Positions 16,501-44,300 of a stretch of 64,000 nucleotides of DNA are shown here, in pieces. The notes beneath the pieces were generated by a model. The model saw nothing but the letters and a program-made list of their open reading frames with translations. It did no database searches and was not told the origin of the DNA. The stretch is taken from contig NW_027266297.1 in the NCBI RefSeq assembly GCF_022045235.1, positions 37,076,001 to 37,140,000 of the forward strand. The letters are read 5' to 3'. Each line of letters opens with the position of its first letter. Positions within the stretch are counted from its first letter, which is position 1. The position numbers were made by a program, and so were the translations under genes. The DNA comes from Haliotis cracherodii. Lineage: Eukaryota.

Positions 16501-19500
16501 GAAGTATTAGTATAATTACAATATATGATTGTAAAATATACCATGGAACTTTAATTTTTATTACAAATAAGAAAGTGAAATATAGATCATCGGTATTCAG
16601 ATTGAAAGTATACTACTCAAAAGAAGTTAAAGAACTCCTCTTTTGTTTCATATTAATATAGTTAATCTGTCATCTCATTACCAAATCGGGTGTTCTCTAA
16701 CCTCTTTTGTGAGTATTATATACCAGATCGTAAGTAATAGATCTTGAGTGTTAGTTACTGTTAATTGTGAAAATATCATGCACATTTTGCCAACCTGTAT
16801 AATAGTTAGCTGTATACGTTGCAGGAATCTGTTTATTCTGGAGGGCTAGAGATTGACCTGGGGGAGGGGCAGGTGGGCGGGGCAGGCCTCCTCCAGCCTA
16901 CTGCCCCAGGACAACAGAAAGTCCTGAAGAGCTCTTCCCTTGGGAGCATTCACAATGAAGATGGTAGTGCTGTGATTGTTGACCAGGATGACATCATAGC
17001 TCTTACCACTGATGTCAAAAGCTTCTCTGATGCCTTGGCCAAACTGAAGACTGCATTCACCTCGGGAACAGGTACTGTGTTCTACTTTACATTGACCATG
17101 TTGACTGACCCTGGCTCATTAGCTTCACAAGGTTATTCATCAGTTCATAGAGCACCCGAAGTTAGTGCTTGAGGAAACATGATCTGTTGAAGAATTTTCC
17201 ATGTCTCGATTTCCTGTTTGACTGTTTTTATGTGAAAAATTATTTTGTTTGAACATGTTGAATGAAATATATCAACACTTGTTGATTCAAGTTCAAATCC
17301 ATTATCGCCTTGTGTTGCCTTGATGGATCTAATACTGAAAATGAACAGTGAATTGTTTCGATTTTCTGTGGAGAATGACATCCTGTAGTTTCTCAGTTTT
17401 ATCAGACAAAGTATCTGCATAATAATTACATGCGTAGTGTCAAGTAAGAACATTTTTTTATTTTACAGCTGTGTTCAGTTTAGAAGTTCTTTTCATGTAG
17501 ACAAAGTATAAGATGTTGGATACTGGTAATGTAAGCATCTGGTGTGACTACTGCACAACAACCACTGTTCATATATTGGGGAACAGGATGTCAAGCAACA
17601 ACTGCTTCCTCTTACATAATGTTCCCTTTCTTTCAATTTCTTAGTTTTCAGTGAAAACAAATGAAACTGTCCCTCTTGGGCCTATTTTATTACAATATTG
17701 TGGAATAATTAAAAAAAATTCTTTTAAAACTAAAATCACCTTGCTTTTTCAATAAAATGTGATGTTGCAAGTTACATGAAAACACATGAATATGGCAAAT
17801 ATTTAGAAAGCACTTGACATTAATCAAGTTGTGTGTCTCTATTATTGAAATAACTGAATACTGTTGTGCAGGTGTCTCACAAACAAGAGACAGTTGGCCA
17901 TCTTGCATACATAGTACCCAGTACCCGTTCGTTTACCCGAATTCACTGAAGGGGTAGATCAACAGTGTAATTTTTCTATGCGCTTGACATTCAATTTTTT
18001 TTCTCCAAAATACTGAATCCGCTAGAGGGAGGTACGCATTATACATGGGTGCGCACTATACTCAAGAAAATACGGTATGTTTGCGACTGTTCAAAACAGC
18101 ATTAAACCCAACTCACTCACTCACTCACTCTATTGTAGAAACAGCTGATGAGGCTCATGTGCTGGCACACGAGCGTCTTGGGGAGGTCATCTGCATCCTC
18201 AAGAATGTCCTCAATCGCTATCCGGCGCTCCACTCCACTGATCTCTTCTCATCAGCGGGAACACTTATTGGAAAAATCAAAAGTAGGTATTGTTAAATTG
18301 AACTTCTTATGGTTGTCATTGCAAGCTAGTGCAAGTGCACATGGTGGAATGGGCGATCACCTGAAGACTGTTGTTGTTCCATAACATTGATATTTCATGT
18401 AACCAAAGTTTGTAAAAAGTATTTGGCGTATAACGTCACCCTCAGCAATATTCCAGCTATGTGACAGAGGTCTGTAAATAATTGAGTCTGGACCAGACAA
18501 TCACGTGATTGACATAATAAGCATCACTCTCTCAATTGGGATACAATGACATGCATCAAGCAAGGCTGAGTGCCTCACCATCTGATCCTGTTAGTCGCCC
18601 TTGTGACAAGCATGGGTTCCGAAGACCAATTCTAACCCTGATCTTCATCTGGAGTCCACTAATAAAGATCAGGTGGTTGTGGTATGCGGCCTTTCAGATT
18701 GTGTACAATTGTACCCTAACAGTGTGGATAGTGCCTGACTTGCTGTCCCAGACTCCCATCATGTACAGACAGTTGTGATATAGCTGGCATAGTGCTGACT
18801 GCGGTTTTAAACTACATTCACTTACTCAAACTGAGAATTAGCATATCCTGTCATTTGCCAGGAATCTGTTCTTTGGGGAGTTTATGTTTGTTTTTGTTAT
18901 GCCAAATGGCCATTTTGATAAGCCAAACGCACATTTAGGTACAAGGTCCTATGTGGTGATGTATTATGAATGCTTCAACAGTATTAAGAGACCACCTCCA
19001 TGGTCTAGTGGATCCAGACAAGNNNNNNNNNNNNNNNNNNNNNNNNNNNNNNNNNNNNNNNNNNNNNNNNNNNNNNNNNNNNNNNNNNNNNNNNNNNNNN
19101 NNNNNNNNNNNNNNNNNNNNNNNNNNNNNNNNNNNNNNNNNNNNNNNNNNNNNNNNNNNNNNNNNNNNNNNNNNNNNNNNNNNNNNNNNNNNNNNNNNNN
19201 NNNNNNNNNNNNNNNNNNNNNNNNNNNNNNNNNNNNNNNNNNNNNNNNNNNNNNNNNNNNNNNNNNNNNNNNNNNNNNNNNNNNNNNNNNNNNNNNNNNN
19301 NNNNNNNNNNNNNNNNNNNNNNNNNNNNNNNNNNNNNNNNNNNNNNNNNNNNNGTATTTTCAATCAGGTGCTGCAGCTTGATCAAAGACCCTGATAATTA
19401 TGTCTCCCTATTGTCACCACGTGTCATTGTGTAGCATAACTCATCTGTGTGTATGAATCATGTTAATCAACTACGATTTGTCCCGAAGGTCACAACTATG

Positions 19501-35300: not shown

Positions 35301-38300
35301 TATGCTTGTCTTAAAAGGCGACTAACAGGATCGGGTGGTCAGGCTCGCTGGATTGTCTGGTCCAGACTCTTAGTATTTTCAGACCGCCGTCATATAGCTG
35401 GAATATTGCTGAGTGCGGCGTTAAACAACAAACAAACAAACATGCCGGGACCAGGCCATGACTTGAATTGTTGGTTAAAAATAGCGACTGAACTGCAAAG
35501 TGGCTGTACATTTGTATTTCAGCTTCCAGAGCCCCTGTTGACGTTCCGGTTTTACTCAGATTTTATACATGTGGCAAAGGTATGTACACCTGATATGAGG
35601 AAAGATTTTATGCATGTGGCAAAACAGAAAAGTAAATCCATTTCATTCCTGTCTTCAATGATACCATAGCTTCTAAAGATCAGGGCACATAGGTGGCGCT
35701 GTCACGTAAACCGCCACAAGTACCCGTGCAGAGTTGCCAGATATAACTGTGATCGTGGGTTTGAATTCCAGATTCTCCCTGATTATGTTTCTAGGTTTGT
35801 CAGCACCATACCCCGCTGGTCATAATGCCTTTTTTGAATTTTAACTCCACAGTGTTACCCTGTTGGGATTCTGTGTTAGAACTGGCTCCCAGCAACCTCT
35901 GTTGGTCATAATGGCTTAGTGGATTGGATCGCCAGGCTTGTTGACTTGGTTCATGGTGTGTCATTGTTCCCCGATGGTGTGGATCATTGCTCACAAAATT
36001 AATTACTTGATTGACTGGTCTAGACTCCATTATTGACTGCTGTCGGGGCAGTCGGGTAGCCTAGTGGTTAAAGCGTTCGCTCGTCACGCCAACGACCCGG
36101 GTTCGAATCCCGACATGGGTACATTGTGTGAAGCCCATTTCTGGTGTCCCCCGCCTTGATTTTGCTGGAATATTGCTAATAGCGGCGTAAAACCAAACTC
36201 ACTCACTCACTCACTTATTGACTGCTCTCATATAGCAGGAATATTGCTGAGTGGAGCATTTTATAACAAACACACACACTCACCAGTATCAGATGTGGGC
36301 CAATACCTACAGACGTTAAAAGATGGTACTTGTTGTTGCCCTGTCTGGCGCTGGGCATTAAGGGGATAAGACAAGGACAGATGTGGGCCCACCTTTATGA
36401 CTGTTTCAGGCACACACACACTCACTCACTTGTTTCAGGAACACTCACTCACTCACTCACTCACTCACTCACTCACTCACTCACTCACTCACTCACTCAC
36501 TGAGATGTGGGCCCACTGTTTACCTCTGTGACTGTTTCAGGCACACACACTCTCACTCACTTGTTTCAGGAACACACACTCACTCACTCAGATGTGGGCC
36601 CACTGTTTACCTCTGTGACTGTTTCAGGCACACACACTCTCACTCACTTGTTTCAGGAACACTCACTCACTCACTCACTCACTCACTCACTCACTCACTC
36701 ACTCACTGAGATGTGGGCCCACTGTTTACCTCTGTGACTGTTTCAGGCACACACACTCTCACTCACTTGTTTCAGGAACACTCACTCACTCACTCACTCA
36801 CTCACTCACTCACTCACTCACTCACTGAGATGTGGGCCCACTGTTTACCTCTGTGACTGTTTCAGGCACACACACACTCACTCACTCGTTTCAGGAACAC
36901 TACTCACTCACTCACTCACTCACTCACTCACTCACTCACTGAGATGTGGGCCCACTGTTTACCTCTGTGACTGTTTCAGGAACACACACTCACTCACTCA
37001 CTCACTCACTCACTCAGATGTGGGCCCACTGTTTACCTCTGTGACTGTTTCAGGCACACACACTCTCACTCACTTGTTTCAGAACACACTCACTCACTCA
37101 CTCACTCACTCACTCACTCACTCACTCACTCACTGTTTACCTCTGTGACTGTTTCAGGCACACACTCACTCACTCGTTTCAGGAACACTCACTCACTCAC
37201 TCAGATGTGGGCCCACTGTTTACCTCTGTGACTGTTTCAGGAACATACATCAGGTGTTATGAGTAGCCTGAAGACGATAGAGAAGTTGTCCTATCTGGTT
37301 CGGATGCTGCCTCCTTCCAACTTTAAAACCTGTGCTGTTCTCATGCATCATCTACAAAGGTAAATAATCAAATCACCACAGAATTCCACGGATTTCGTTA
37401 CGTCAAGTGTCACTTTTGTGATACATGCCATTACAATATACACATAAATCATGTAGACCTCAGCTAACTTTCAGTGTGCTTTTTTTGAGTAAAAACATTC
37501 TCATCCCTTCTCTCTTGGGGCAGTGAGGTAGCCTAGTTGTTAAGGCAATCGTCATCACACTAAAGGCCTGTGTTCGATTCCCCAAATGAATGCAGTGTGT
37601 GAAGCTCATTTCTGATGTCCTGGTCCATGATATGACAACAATGCAGTCCTGACAACACCCAGCATGAACGCAGTTTATCTGCCTTACAGCACAAAAAACA
37701 AGATCCTGATCCTCTGACATGTACCCATCTTTCATAGTTATTACCAGAGAGCCAATTGCGTGATTATTTTACCTTGTTTCATTCATCTAAGAGTGTGTTG
37801 TATAGAAATTTGAATACATTATCAGGGTAGCCGCTCACTCTGATGTGAACCAGATGAGCTCCAGCAACCTGGGCATCGTCTTCGGCCCAACACTACTCCG
37901 ACCAGCGTAAGTAACACTACTCCGACCAGCGTAAGTAACACTACTCCGACCAGCGTAAGTAACACCACTCCGACCAGCGTAAGTAACACCACTCCGACCA
38001 GCGTAAATAACACTTCTCCGACCAGCTTAAATAACACTACTCCGACCAGCGTAAGTAACACCACTCCGACCAGCGTAACACTACTCCGACCAGTGTGAGT
38101 AACACTACTCCGACCAGCGTGAGTAACACTACTCCGACCAGCGTGAGTAACACCACTCCGACCAGCGTAAGTAACACCACTCCGACCAGCGTAAATAACA
38201 CTTCTCCGACCAGCTTAAATAACACTACTCCGACCAGCGTAAGTAACACCACTCCGACCAGCGTAACACTACTCCGACCAGTGTGAGTAACACTACTCCG

Positions 38301-41300
38301 ACCAGCGTGAGTAACACTACTCCGACCAGCGTGAGTAACACCACTCCGACCAGCGTAACACTACTCCGACCAGTGTGAGTAACACTACTCCGACCAGCGT
38401 GAGTAACACTACTCCGACCAGCGTGAGTAACACCACTCCGACCAGCGTGAGTAACACTACTCCGACCAGTGTGAGTAACACTACTCCGACCAGCGTGAGT
38501 AACACCACTCCGACCAGCGTGAGTAACACTACGCCGACCAGCGTAAGTAACACTACTCCGACCAGCGTAAGTAACACTACACCGACCAGTGTAAGTAACA
38601 GCTGACAAGCCATCCACCCTGTGGACTGTATATGCTGGGTTTAAGTGAGATAGACATACGTATAATTTTCATAATACATGTATGGAAGATTCATCTACAG
38701 AATAGCAGTGTCTGAGTAATAAGGCAGAAAAATGTTTGTGTTTTCTTTGATACAATTATCATGTTATGTTAGTAAGAAGAATACTGATCTCCATTGTGTG
38801 ACTTATTAACAAAATAAGCCACTTATGATGTTTTGGGTTTTTTTTCATTTCTATATTGATGTCAATATTGATTCGGGTATATCACTGTCCAGAATTTAAG
38901 AAGGTGATAGCCAACAGCCGTCTTGGAAAACATTCTTCTCAATTAATTTCAAAATTACAACAAAAAAGATTTACATGTCATTGCGTTTCTGTGATTATGC
39001 AGGGAAGGAACAGCCTCGCTAGCCTCTCTGGTGGACACACCACACCAAACCCGGGCCATTGAACTACTTATCTCATCAGCACAGGTATCTAGCATAGCAA
39101 CATGAAATCAACACTTCCAATGCAAACTTTTCTGAATACTGCCGTGTATCATGAGTCCCTCCAGTGGGAATTGCAGGTCTCCTGTACTTACTGCTGGTAG
39201 AAAGACCTCAGACCCCAGTGAAGATCCGGCCTAGAATTGGTCTTCAGCAAACCCATGCCCATAAAAAGCCACTAACGGGATCGGGTGGTCAGACGCACTG
39301 ACTTGGTTGATGCATGTCATTGTATCCGAATTACATAGATTGATACTCATGATGCCAATCACTGGATTGTCTAGTCCGCTTACTGCCGTCATATAGCTGA
39401 AATATTGCTGAGTCAGGTAGTAAACAACAAACAAACATACCTGACTTAGCAGGGATAGAAATATCTACTGGACCGAAGAGTAACAACATATGACAATACC
39501 CCCTTAGGATACCTTTGACATTAACAAAACTGGTCCTGGCCAGTGGGCTGGCTGTAACTTCCATTCCTGCTAAGATGAGGTGATTTGTCAGATTGCATGT
39601 CATTGCATCCTGATGCCATTGATCATTGATCAATTGGGATCATTGTCAATGGTTTGCCTGGTCCTGACTGTTTTCTGATATAATTAAAATAGTGCTGACT
39701 GCAGCATTAAACTAAACAGCATTCACTCACTCACTGTAATGAAAAAACACAAGATGTGACTTTCAAAAGTGTTGTGTTTGAAATAAGAAATTCGAATATG
39801 AGTGTTTGTCTTTATTGTGTACAGTTCCCATACCAGGCTGTTGATGTGACATGTGTTGTAATGAACATGTTCCGTCTCTGTTACAGACCATTTTTGGTCC
39901 TGGAGCTGACTATCAGCTTATAGGAGGTGAGACACCGGTGGAGGAGCTGCCCGATCCAGCACCCCAAGCAGCCAGACAGACAAAATCAGGTAGTCCATCC
40001 ACTCATCCTAGAGTCCCGAAACTGAGGGGTCTAGTGGACAGAGCGTTCACTCATCCTAGTGTCCATAAACTGTGAGGGGGGCAGTCAGGGGGTCTAGTGG
40101 ATAGAGTGTTCACTCATCCTACAGTACACGAACTGTGAGTGGGGCAGTCTAGTGGATAGAGCGCTCACTCATCCTACAGTACACGAACTGTGAGTGGGGC
40201 AGTCTAGTGGATAGAGCGTTCACTCATCCTACAGTACACGAACTGTGAGTGGGGCAGACTAGTGGATAGAGTGTTCACTCATCCTACAGTACACGAACTG
40301 TGAGTGGGGCAGTCTAGTGGATAGAGTGTTCACTCATCCTACAGTACACGAACTTTGAGTGGGGCAGACTAGTGGATAGAGTGTTCACTCATCCTACAGT
40401 ACACGAACTGTGAGTGGGGCAGACTAGTGGATAGAGTGTTCACTCATCCTACAGTACACAAACTTTGAGGGGTGCAGTCTAGTGGACAGAGCGTTCACTC
40501 ATCCTAGTGTCCATAAACTGTGAGGGGGGCCAGTCAGGGGGTCTAGTGGATAGAGTGTTCACTCATCCTACAGTACACGAACTGTGAGTGGGGCAGTCTA
40601 GTGGATAGAGTGTTCACTCATCCTACAGTACACGAACTGTGAGTGGGGCAGACTAGTGGATAGAGTGTTCACTCATCCTACAGTACACAAACTTTGAGGG
40701 GTGCAGTCTAGTGGACAGAGCGTTCACTCATCCTAGTGTCCATAAACTGTGAGGGGGGCCAGTCAGGGGGTCTAGTGGATAGAGTGTTCACTCATCCTAC
40801 AGTACACGAACTGTGAGTGGGGCAGTCTAGTGGATAGAGTGTTCACTCATCCTACAGTACACGAACTGTGAGTGGGGCAGTCTAGTGGATAGAGCGTTCA
40901 CTCATCCTACAGTACACGAACTATGAGTGGGGCAGTCGAGTGGATAGAGTGTTCACTCATCCTACAGTACACGAACTTTGAGGGGGGCAGTCTAGTGGAT
41001 AGAGTGTTAGCTCATGCTGATAACCTGGGTGAATTCTCACATTCAGGGTTTCAGCTGTGAGTGAGTGAGTGGGGTTTTACGCCGCTTTTAGCAATATTCC
41101 AGCAATATCACGGCGGGAACACCAGAAATGGGCTTCACACATTGTACCCATGTCGGGAATCGAACCCGGGTCTTCGGCGTGACGAGCGAACGCTTTAACC
41201 ACTAGGCTACCCGACCGCCCTCAGGGTTTCAGATCATTTCATGTTTTGCGACACAGACTGATTGTCATCTAAAACGATCTGAGGATATTTTTCAAATTTG

Positions 41301-44300
41301 GTAATGAAATGGAAGAATTTCCTGTCGAGTGGATAAGATCATGAAAATGTCCTGGGCCCACTTGCACAAAGCCACCTTAGTGGTAAGACCATCGTAACTC
41401 CCATACTTTAACATAGACTTACAATAGTGTTCGCACTAAGATTGGTTTGTGCAAGTGGGCCTTGATGTCAGTGTCTCTACCACACTCACTGTACACCGGT
41501 ACAGTCTGTGAAGCCTATTCTTGATGTCCCCCGCCGTGATGTGACTGGAATAGGGCTTATAGAGATGTAATACGCCACTCACAGAACTGCGATTAGCATG
41601 ACAGTAAGGTATGTGATACATGAGGTTTGGTTGTCATGACAAGTCTCATTACTTCCATATGATCATATGATCATATGATGTCTGTCTTTCAGAAACCAAG
41701 GAAGTCTTGACCGTGTCTGTACCATCGGAGCCTCCGTCAGTGAAACTTCCTTCAAGGTATGTTGAGGCTTGATTACACTAATTGTATTGTTGTGGTATAG
41801 GCAGAAGTCACAAAGTGACTTAGACAGGCTTTCCTTCAACACTGATGCCTGAGTATTTTCACTGACATTTACCAATTAATGACAAAACCAACAATCAGTC
41901 AAGTGTGACTTTATTCTTTTCACGATATGCTGCACATGATTTCCAAACTTAACACGCTGATCCTGCACGAGACAAAAGTGATGTGATGTGTTCATGAGCA
42001 TCGGTTCACACAACATATCACTATGTTCATTGTGCATCAAACCAATCTAATATCTCTTGAATATGAGTAAGTCTTCATATAATAACCAACATGTGTGGTA
42101 TTTGCGTTTCATTTGGTGGTGTGTATATTATCACATTGGAAACATCTCTTCTTAACATACATACTTCTCTATATATTTCTATGGTTCATGTTTCTTTTGG
42201 TGGTGAGTATCTATCAGTGTAAGACATTAACAGATATCCTAGGCCTTTGATGTAGTTTGATTATTTGATCTAATACTCTCCCAAAAAGTTTTCTGATTGC
42301 TCCATGCTTTCTCTTGTAATGTCTAATGCAGGACCGCCTCCGTGGTCTAGTGGTAGAGTGTCCGCCCGGAGAGCGGAAGGTCCGGGGTTCGATCTCTGCG
42401 TCATACCAAAAGACGTTAAAAGATAGTACTTGTTGTTACCCTGTCAGGCGCTCGGCATTAAGGGGCTTAAACAAGGACTGGTCGGCTCAGAGTCTGTATA
42501 CAGTGTCTTGAGTGGGGTATTCATGTTAAACTGTGGCATGGTATCTCAGTGTGCTAGCACTATAAATCGGCATCACTCTGGACTTGTACAAGCAGCCACA
42601 GACACACGTGCATGCACGTCGCTATATAAGTGCAATAATCTTGGACTCGACGTTAAACCCAATTTCACCTCACCTCACCTCTAATGCAGGATCATACAAA
42701 TACTTTATCTGAACTCTCAAAGGGAGATAAGCCTGACTGTATCTGTCCCTTGATCAATGTTGTTGTTTTTCCAGCAGCCAGCCTGTGGATGTGGCAGCCG
42801 TGGACAAGATCGTGCAGCCGGCGGACGAGGTTGACGGGGACAGCTCCAAGGTACTGTCCTCCCCTTCACACTTCATGGCACTGGCAGGAAGGATCACAAA
42901 CAGTCTAACGCTAGTCTCAAAGTCTGACTCATTGAAGGAAATAGTACCTAGATCTAGGGGCAAACAGACTTGTGCAGCCTTTTTTCCAAATGTGTATTGT
43001 CTTTGGTCCATATATCACATCAGCTCCTTTTATCTCATTTGCTAAGATAATGACTGGTATGGCTTAGATTTAGCTAAGTAAACATTAGTACTCAGGCACC
43101 ACTTGCATAAGCATCAAAAAGCTGATATAAATTTATTCTCTTTTTGTTTTGAGAAGAAAAGGTCACTGCCAACACCAGTTGTTCAAACCTTTTTGCCAGA
43201 AAAGTGGCCAAGTTGTTGAGCTTTCGACTGTTACGATCATGCCTGCCACACGTTGTTTTGATATTTTGGTCACCAGGCACCTATCTTACTTTTCTGCAAT
43301 TACTCATCGCTGATAGGAAGCGATGTTACTCATAGTGACATGATTGAGGTTTTCTCTCAGATTGTCCTTCACATACATTATGGGTTAGTTCAATGGATTG
43401 GAAAGTAAGTTATTAGAAGAAGGGATAATCCAGAAAAATATATTTGTGCTTTAACAATCCAGTATTATTATGATTGACATAACCTGTATTAGACAGATTG
43501 TACATAAATATCCTCACCATTACACCTGTAGTGGTCTGATTCATTTACTGTCTTAGGATCCAGGGTCCTCAGAGTCCATCAGCTAGAACTTTGGAGGGAT
43601 TCTGAAATAATATTGACATGTGTTTATTTCTTATGCCACCAGTCCTCATGTATTTCCTTGCCACGTCTTATTGCAGACCTCGGGGGCGGAGTTTGTACTG
43701 CCTGGCAGTATGAGCCCCGGGAAGAGTGACAATATGTCTCCCACAAGCACACTGACCGAGGGTAAACTACTGACTACCCCACTTAGCATGACACGGCTTA
43801 CGTAGCAGCCTGCTTGTGGGCTGCCGCCCCGGCTGTAGCCTCAGTGCCTGCTGGCTCAGCATCTAATACTCCATTAACTGCTCGCTCATCATTTTCTTGC
43901 AACCATGTCAGAATCATAGTGGAAAAGCCCATTGATAAGATAATTATTGAATATTTTAAATAATTTTTTTAGAGGTTTTTACAATGACTTTTTGGAAGTT
44001 TATACCAAATAGGTACTACAGCATATTAATCTCTAGTGTACATACTGTGTAAGATTTTTTTTTTTTTTTAAATATCAATATCTACAGGCATTTTGATAAG
44101 GTGAATTTGACAATAATATTATATTTTTAATGTATTATATCAGTGTTTGGTGTTAGGATGAACATTGTGTCTTGTCCATTCCTGATGTTTACAAGTTCAA
44201 TTTTAGATTTTGCAAGGCTAACTACAAGTTCAATTGCAGTTTTGGGTAAAGCAGGGATGCATTTAGTGATCACAACTTAATATGCAAGTGCAATATGAAT

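Follow-up and report, generated by a model that had tools for sequence, protein, structure and literature searches.

A minisatellite of eight tandem copies of its own acceptor region precedes exon 23 in an abalone RhoGAP45/29-like gene

Tandem repeats that span exon-intron boundaries, known as mirages, have been described in the amphioxus Adh3, globin, troponin C and PGBD5 genes, where the accessible portions of the reports describe splicing as undisturbed (PMC3087553; PMC3902484). The first of these reports describes turnover at BflGb6 in which inner units are homogenised and boundary units are diverged (PMC3087553). In the human F7 gene, the first unit of a 37-bp VNTR in intron 7 spans the exon-intron boundary, and the identical pseudo-sites are functional but silent; use of the exon-adjacent site was explained there by 5'-to-3' scanning, as far as the accessible text goes (PMC1557585). 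On the acceptor side, human CBS 844ins68 duplicates the last 52 intron and first 16 exon bases, and the part of the report at hand states that splicing goes to the downstream 3' splice site and removes the extra copy (PMC7490669). An intronic 27-bp minisatellite of variable copy number is known from abalone and is not described as boundary-crossing in the available part of its report (PMC6905558). Our search of the open-access literature found no published mollusc mirage, and our literature search found no VNTR with an acceptor in every unit.

Here we describe a repeat of this kind in the abalone Haliotis cracherodii, within a window of 64,000 nucleotides, the whole stretch of DNA that was analysed and to which all coordinates refer. 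The source gene of the array is an intact 31-exon abalone RhoGAP45/29-like gene. Its last long exon in the window is 100% identical to P0001, named rho GTPase-activating protein 45-like (Haliotis cracherodii) by NCBI, which has relatives at 99% in H. rufescens and 88% in H. rubra. Exact mapping of P0001 gave 31 exons over 13502-56331 with GT-AG introns; the internal exons (n=29) have a median length of 82 nt and a maximum of 247 nt. Intron 22 is 1661 nt long, and its final 860 bp are the array. The exon number 23 and the donor at 35579 given in a preliminary description of this DNA are correct. Elsewhere in the gene, the acceptor of exon 28 is a CAGCAG tandem at 42775-42778, and the one-residue difference between RefSeq isoforms X1 and X2 possibly comes from it. 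A short open frame on the minus strand at 1033-1392 looks like an exon of an opposite-strand neighbour gene and may resemble the N-terminus of a threonine/serine dehydratase. The features used below are listed here with their evidence, which includes sequencing runs taken as RNA (X5, X6, X9 and X15), and runs of DNA of the same organism, organism A, from another study (X7 and X8), and of a relative, organism B (X10 and X12).

35523..35579, plus strand: exon 22, ending ...FIHVAK in phase 0, with its donor at 35580 (exact P0001 mapping; X6 and X15 RNA contigs)
36042..36226, plus strand: putative young SINE-like insertion, tRNA-derived, flanked by a 12-nt target-site duplication and ending in an (ACTC)n tail, labelled from its sequence and very high depth
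36228..36289, plus strand: putative 3' end of an older SINE-like element, with a tail of AC/ACTC, common to organism B (X12 contig 36228-36341)
36290..36378, plus strand: first 12 nt of the unit, then a fragment of a dispersed repeat, 76 nt long; the same 12-mer is found again at 36378, as in a target-site duplication
36379..37202, plus strand: eight decoy units of 68-124 nt each, delimited by sequence; unit 1 is present in X8 DNA (36340-36430)
37203..37240, plus strand: last unit, the authentic 3' splice site, with a branch-point-like TTTAC at -19 and AG at 37239-37240 (X7 DNA contig 37203-37438; RNA contigs enter at 37239)
37241..37359, plus strand: exon 23, 119 nt, in the RhoGAP domain, EHTSG...HLQR (P0001 mapping; spliced joint 37357-37824, GT..AG, in X5 and X9)
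37826..37906, plus strand: exon 24, 81 nt, whose donor is unit 1 of the adjoining donor array (P0001 mapping and RNA contigs)
37889..38600, plus strand: separate donor-side mirage after exon 24, a 24-nt unit x 30 (18 exon nt and 6 intron nt) unrelated to the unit of the acceptor array

The acceptor array is a compound minisatellite of nine units (36379-37245, ~860 bp), the final one holding the real acceptor, in agreement with the earlier estimate that about 40 nt before exon 23 are repeated some eight times. Each decoy unit consists of the last 36-38 intronic nt with their AG, then, in seven of the eight units, a 25-29 nt piece that ends in a short second acceptor, and an (ACTC)3-14 spacer. 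TTTCAG occurs 16 times (36409-37240), as the real acceptor at 37240 and 15 decoys, which bears out the roughly 15 acceptor-like sites first reported. That inventory missed eight further AG/ATGTGG sites, seven of them within 36379..37202 and the eighth at 37204. The decoys had also been called equivalent, which holds for about half of them: seven share 27-55 identical upstream nt with the real site, but the other eight share only 12 nt (one decoy, in the first unit) or 7-8 nt (seven decoys). Similarly, the first exon bases GAACA, described as part of the repeated segment, are present, but they follow the long acceptor copy in only one of eight units (36979), and the six other occurrences follow short second acceptors. 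Just 0-5 exon bases are copied in the decoy units. The inner units at 36590 and 36709 are identical over 119 nt and the first unit is diverged, as judged by inspection and not from a tree. A 22-mer of the unit occurs seven times in the 1.18-Gb genome, every time inside the array, so the repeats arose by local duplication, far beyond chance. A transposon origin of the unit was considered and rejected, the 22-mer being confined to this single locus. Folding of the last units, run as a prediction with no shuffle control, gave a long hairpin over 37137-37290.

The preliminary description placed the start of the coding exon at the last of these sites, and proteins and RNA contigs agree. All 16 Haliotis RefSeq proteins (three clusters, four species) read from HVAK directly into EHTSG; therefore, the productive junction is 35579 to 37241, as deduced from its two sides together with the RefSeq models. 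The run comparisons covered both flanks of the array. On the exon 23 side, both RNA runs compared (X5 and X9, one study) yielded a single spliced contig that enters at 37239 and skips intron 23, the two extra letters at the entry being the AG common to the end of exon 22. Upstream of this entry the X5 contig carries 2396 letters, matching 2268 coding bases plus a short leader. The depth of the bin 37218-37244 is wholly accounted for by the spliced contig (4.28 = 19.2 x 6/27; 3.46 = 15.6 x 6/27), and the X5 and X9 RNA contigs included no other contig over 37218-37238 and no decoy-joined contig. On the exon 22 side, both RNA runs compared (X6 and X15, two studies) have one contig that spans 35520-35580 and ends there; dispersed-repeat contigs swamped this comparison, with 392 joints beyond those listed, so that a joint leading from 35579 to the first unit may have gone unseen there. 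A depth patch of X6 near 36411, at a 21-nt scale, is indistinguishable from unrelated AC-repeat transcripts. The RNA status of X5 and X9 was deduced from contigs that skip intron 23 at GT..AG, and that of X6 and X15 from contigs that stop at the borders of exon 22, in both cases not from run records. All these comparisons used assembled contigs; the one run with raw reads, X21, is miRNA-seq. At depths of 15-27 these contigs show the major form; by our estimate, decoy use below about a tenth would be invisible in them, and decay would hide more.

When compared with the described systems, as far as their available accounts reach, four of five mirage features (PMC3087553) are found at exon 23: the gene's own boundary is duplicated in tandem (nine units), the AG is kept in all eight copies (15 TTTCAG decoys), splicing is regular, as seen for the major form only in the X5 and X9 contigs and in 16 of 16 proteins, and the inner units evolve in concert with a diverged first unit, again by inspection. 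The fifth feature is haplotype length instability. As in BflGb6, minisatellite-like copies of the intron 3' end and exon start retain the AG; and as in the amphioxus mirages, splicing is normal, inner units are homogenised next to a diverged boundary unit, and copies can form at 5' as well as 3' boundaries, here at exons 23 and 24. Unlike those mirages, this one has a mollusc host and not a cephalochordate one, copies just the few exon bases noted above, and is built of compound units with a short second acceptor and an (ACTC)n microsatellite spacer; its units of 68-124 nt compare with 150-160 in BflGb6 and 10-72 in Adh3. The F7 VNTR likewise has identical sites beside an exon with the exon-adjacent one in use, but it lies on the donor side. 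Scanning in the 5'-to-3' direction, as proposed for F7, fits our adjoining exon 24 donor array and alone cannot pick the last acceptor of the exon 23 array. CBS 844ins68 shares the acceptor-side boundary copy and the use of the downstream 3' splice site; it differs in having one extra copy against eight in abalone, and in the available text it has no microsatellite spacer.

To rate the decoys, we built an acceptor matrix from the gene's 29 other acceptors, a small set with a leave-one-out median of 7.3. The real site scored 9.2 and the seven long decoys 9.2-10.2, with the other eight TTTCAG sites at 2.7-6.1 and the eight AG/ATGTGG sites at -8.7 to 2.3. Since seven decoys score as high as the real site, sequence strength fails to explain which acceptor is chosen. 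The two nearest decoys had been said to add 58 and 83 nt, which is right for TTTCAG decoys but overlooks the nearest alternative AG, at 37204, a weak site that adds 36 nt in frame and meets a TGA stop after eight codons. Among the 15 TTTCAG decoys, four keep the reading frame, and each of these meets a stop. More generally, entry at any of the 24 alternative AGs leads to a premature stop, which falls between residues 759 and 890 of 1353 and no less than 710 nt upstream of the last junction; a stop well ahead of the last junction, a feature of regulated unproductive splicing, is thus found for all of them. Transcripts with such premature stops are degraded under the usual rule for nonsense-mediated decay, a general rule and not one drawn from abalone data. 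By that rule, any leak through the decoys would be removed, with no resulting protein variant. Exons starting at the upstream alternative AGs would be 155-979 nt long, only three of them under 247 nt. The first 40 bases after the real site contain 25 purines and 11 G, when compared with 15-18 purines and 4-7 G in the CA-rich sequence after four decoys checked. As to donors, the array has no GTA and weak GTG sites only.

We also examined how the array relates to its neighbours and to exon edges in general. The exon 24 donor array contains 27 copies of the donor 18-mer within two mismatches; the X5 and X9 RNA contigs leave at the first donor, and back-joints in this array are present in DNA of both X7 (another study) and X10 (organism B). 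Further downstream, a 55-nt minisatellite of 16.5 copies (40029-41015) begins ~40 nt past the exon 26 donor, and its unit resembles the first intron bases after exon 26, without the donor itself. Within this gene, two of 60 splice sites (acceptor 23 and donor 24) head such an array, against 0.64 expected from the rate at which random intronic 18-mers are terminal repeat copies (P = 0.13). At 40 other loci of the genome, arrays were found at 5 of 191 kinase exon edges and 63 of 3000 control positions (Fisher p = 0.60), in a rough test of low power whose edges are approximate, being the ends of profile hits +/- 40 nt. This base rate comes from 40 short-hit places of 135 matches, which gave 104 exon hits, and the edges that could be tested were 96 starts and 95 ends; the 30 best kinase loci, mostly intronless, contributed solely to profile training, for which 18 were taken. 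Arrays of this kind show neither strong enrichment nor strong avoidance at exon edges. The candidate arrays ending near kinase exon edges, at putative splice sites, are at loci L041, L047, L048, L056 and L069. Among the kinase loci, G000:C12:28406365-28415066 (L006-L011) holds six near-identical intronless genes in tandem at ~1.6-kb spacing.

An array rich in (ACTC)n, with a unit count of nine taken from the assembly alone, might partly or wholly be an assembly artefact, that is, inflated copies of a microsatellite-rich stretch. We regard this as barely conceivable. The units differ in heritable-looking ways, and the array's two ends recur in DNA of the same organism from another study. There, X8 holds the diverged first unit (36340-36430), 2 nt shorter in its AC run and with 36 further letters that do not fit, and an X7 contig runs from 37203 through exon 23, joining the last unit to the exon. 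X8 has short contigs that give no per-allele copy number; likewise, the extra depth of X7 over the unit (156 versus 58) is not a copy number. In organism B, whose intron differs from the reference by 11 substitutions and two gaps in 285 nt (~4-5% divergence), one X10 contig carries a 58-nt back-joint from 37233 to 37176, with a long acceptor followed by spacer. X10 has no cover on exon 23, a hole that counts as no evidence, and the repeated unit of organism B is therefore not placed before the orthologous exon; X12 shows that the sequence just upstream of the array (36228-36341) is common to both organisms. With the first and last units in DNA of another study and a tandem unit in organism B, the repeat is genuine and not a product of assembly. 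From sequence comparison, it is also probably older than the split from organism B.

This age is one of the points that favour a functional reading, in which the decoys form a tunable unproductive-splicing switch that diverts transcripts to nonsense-mediated decay, with copy number setting RhoGAP dose, perhaps together with the exon 24 donor array. With a tandem unit also in organism B, the array has probably outlived one species split or more, and we count this against the neutral reading that we prefer. Seven decoys that nearly match the real site in intronic context and equal it in score, a stop after each decoy, and the flanking of exons 23-24 by two arrays would suit a switch as well. However, no decoy-joined contig was seen in X5 or X9, nearly any insertion into an intron would bring stops, arrays show no enrichment at exon edges, and the mirages described so far leave splicing normal in the available portions of the reports (PMC3087553; PMC3902484), so that we consider a switch unlikely. 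The bolder proposal that a copy-number-variable acceptor array, jointly with an outward-facing exon 24 donor array, sends transcripts to decay in step with its length, as a heritable RhoGAP dose dial, strikes us as quite improbable. If it were true, the seven near-identical decoys would offer a natural experiment in vivo on the choice that a mollusc makes among identical 3' splice sites, and measurable decoy use tied to array length would amount to a splicing-based expression variant as well as a test of acceptor choice. Alternatively, the decoys might give rise to variant proteins or represent an intermediate of intron gain, in which a unit is recruited as a new exon, as in the model proposed for amphioxus globins in the accessible part of that report (PMC3087553). 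In-frame TTTCAG decoys, four of 15, are what such a reading would need, but every one of them meets a stop, the array offers weak GTG sites and no GTA donor, few exon bases are copied, and no such isoform is found among the 16 RefSeq proteins. We hold this reading to be very improbable, and a new coding exon from the array was rejected on account of the stops and the lack of a strong donor.

Taken together, we consider it very probable that this array is a mirage minisatellite on the acceptor side, in which the intron 22/exon 23 boundary has been copied eight times in tandem. The copies likely arose by slippage or unequal crossing-over and are likely neutral, with the assembled RNA entering at the last copy. 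The preliminary description had allowed that a lack of decoy use would make the array neutral rather than regulatory. Because no decoy contig was seen and such arrays are no commoner at exon edges, the neutral reading is favoured; by that earlier reasoning too, the evidence points to a neutral array.

As to the origin of such a neutral array, the elements upstream of it suggest a possible course of events. The SINE-like insertion at 36042-36226 is present in X8 (organism A) and absent from organism B, where an X12 contig joins 36042 to 36228 directly, and it appears to be a recent species-level insertion marker. The older SINE-like 3' end likely seeded the spacer microsatellite and the microhomology with the exon start. 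The dispersed-repeat fragment has similar sequence at ~42413 and high depth at 36295-36362, and in the stretch directly before the array, two short segments show microhomology to the start of exon 23. A ~50-60 nt duplication would have followed from microhomology of the first exon bases with the SINE-like tail that lies ~45-60 nt before the acceptor; either of the two microhomologies could seed slippage across the acceptor. Growth of the freed spacer as (ACTC)n may have come next, the short acceptor may have been added by a second slip, of 29 nt, and turnover or unequal exchange would have homogenised the inner units into the present ones. A basic unit of ~50-60 nt would accord with the simple 58-nt unit seen in organism B and with the unit of 74 nt at 36942. 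At exon 3 of the same gene, an (ACTC)n SINE-like tail (~18100-18138) reaches ~10 nt before the AG and makes up most of the pyrimidine tract.

This course of events bears on the proposal that exon definition must select the last of many sites. The last site is indeed the one used, as the proteins and RNA contigs show, but nothing special needs to be selected, since whenever an acceptor is duplicated in tandem, the copy that still adjoins the exon is the original wild-type site. The array is likely slippage debris whose exon-adjacent copy is functional by construction: after duplication, that copy would be the original site with an intact exon, and the gene would be unchanged if that site wins. 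The simplest account of its winning may be pairing across the 119-nt exon with the donor at 37360, aided by exonic enhancers in the purine-rich exon start, and the decoys would be disfavoured by the CA-rich spacer that follows them and by the 155-979 nt exons they would create. Cross-exon definition would be a reasonable cause of the last-site choice. A decoy-rich array of this type could mislead gene prediction. The abalone array extends mirages, as the available accounts describe them, to a mollusc, and it is another example of repeat-rich invertebrate genes tolerating tandem copies of their own splice sites.
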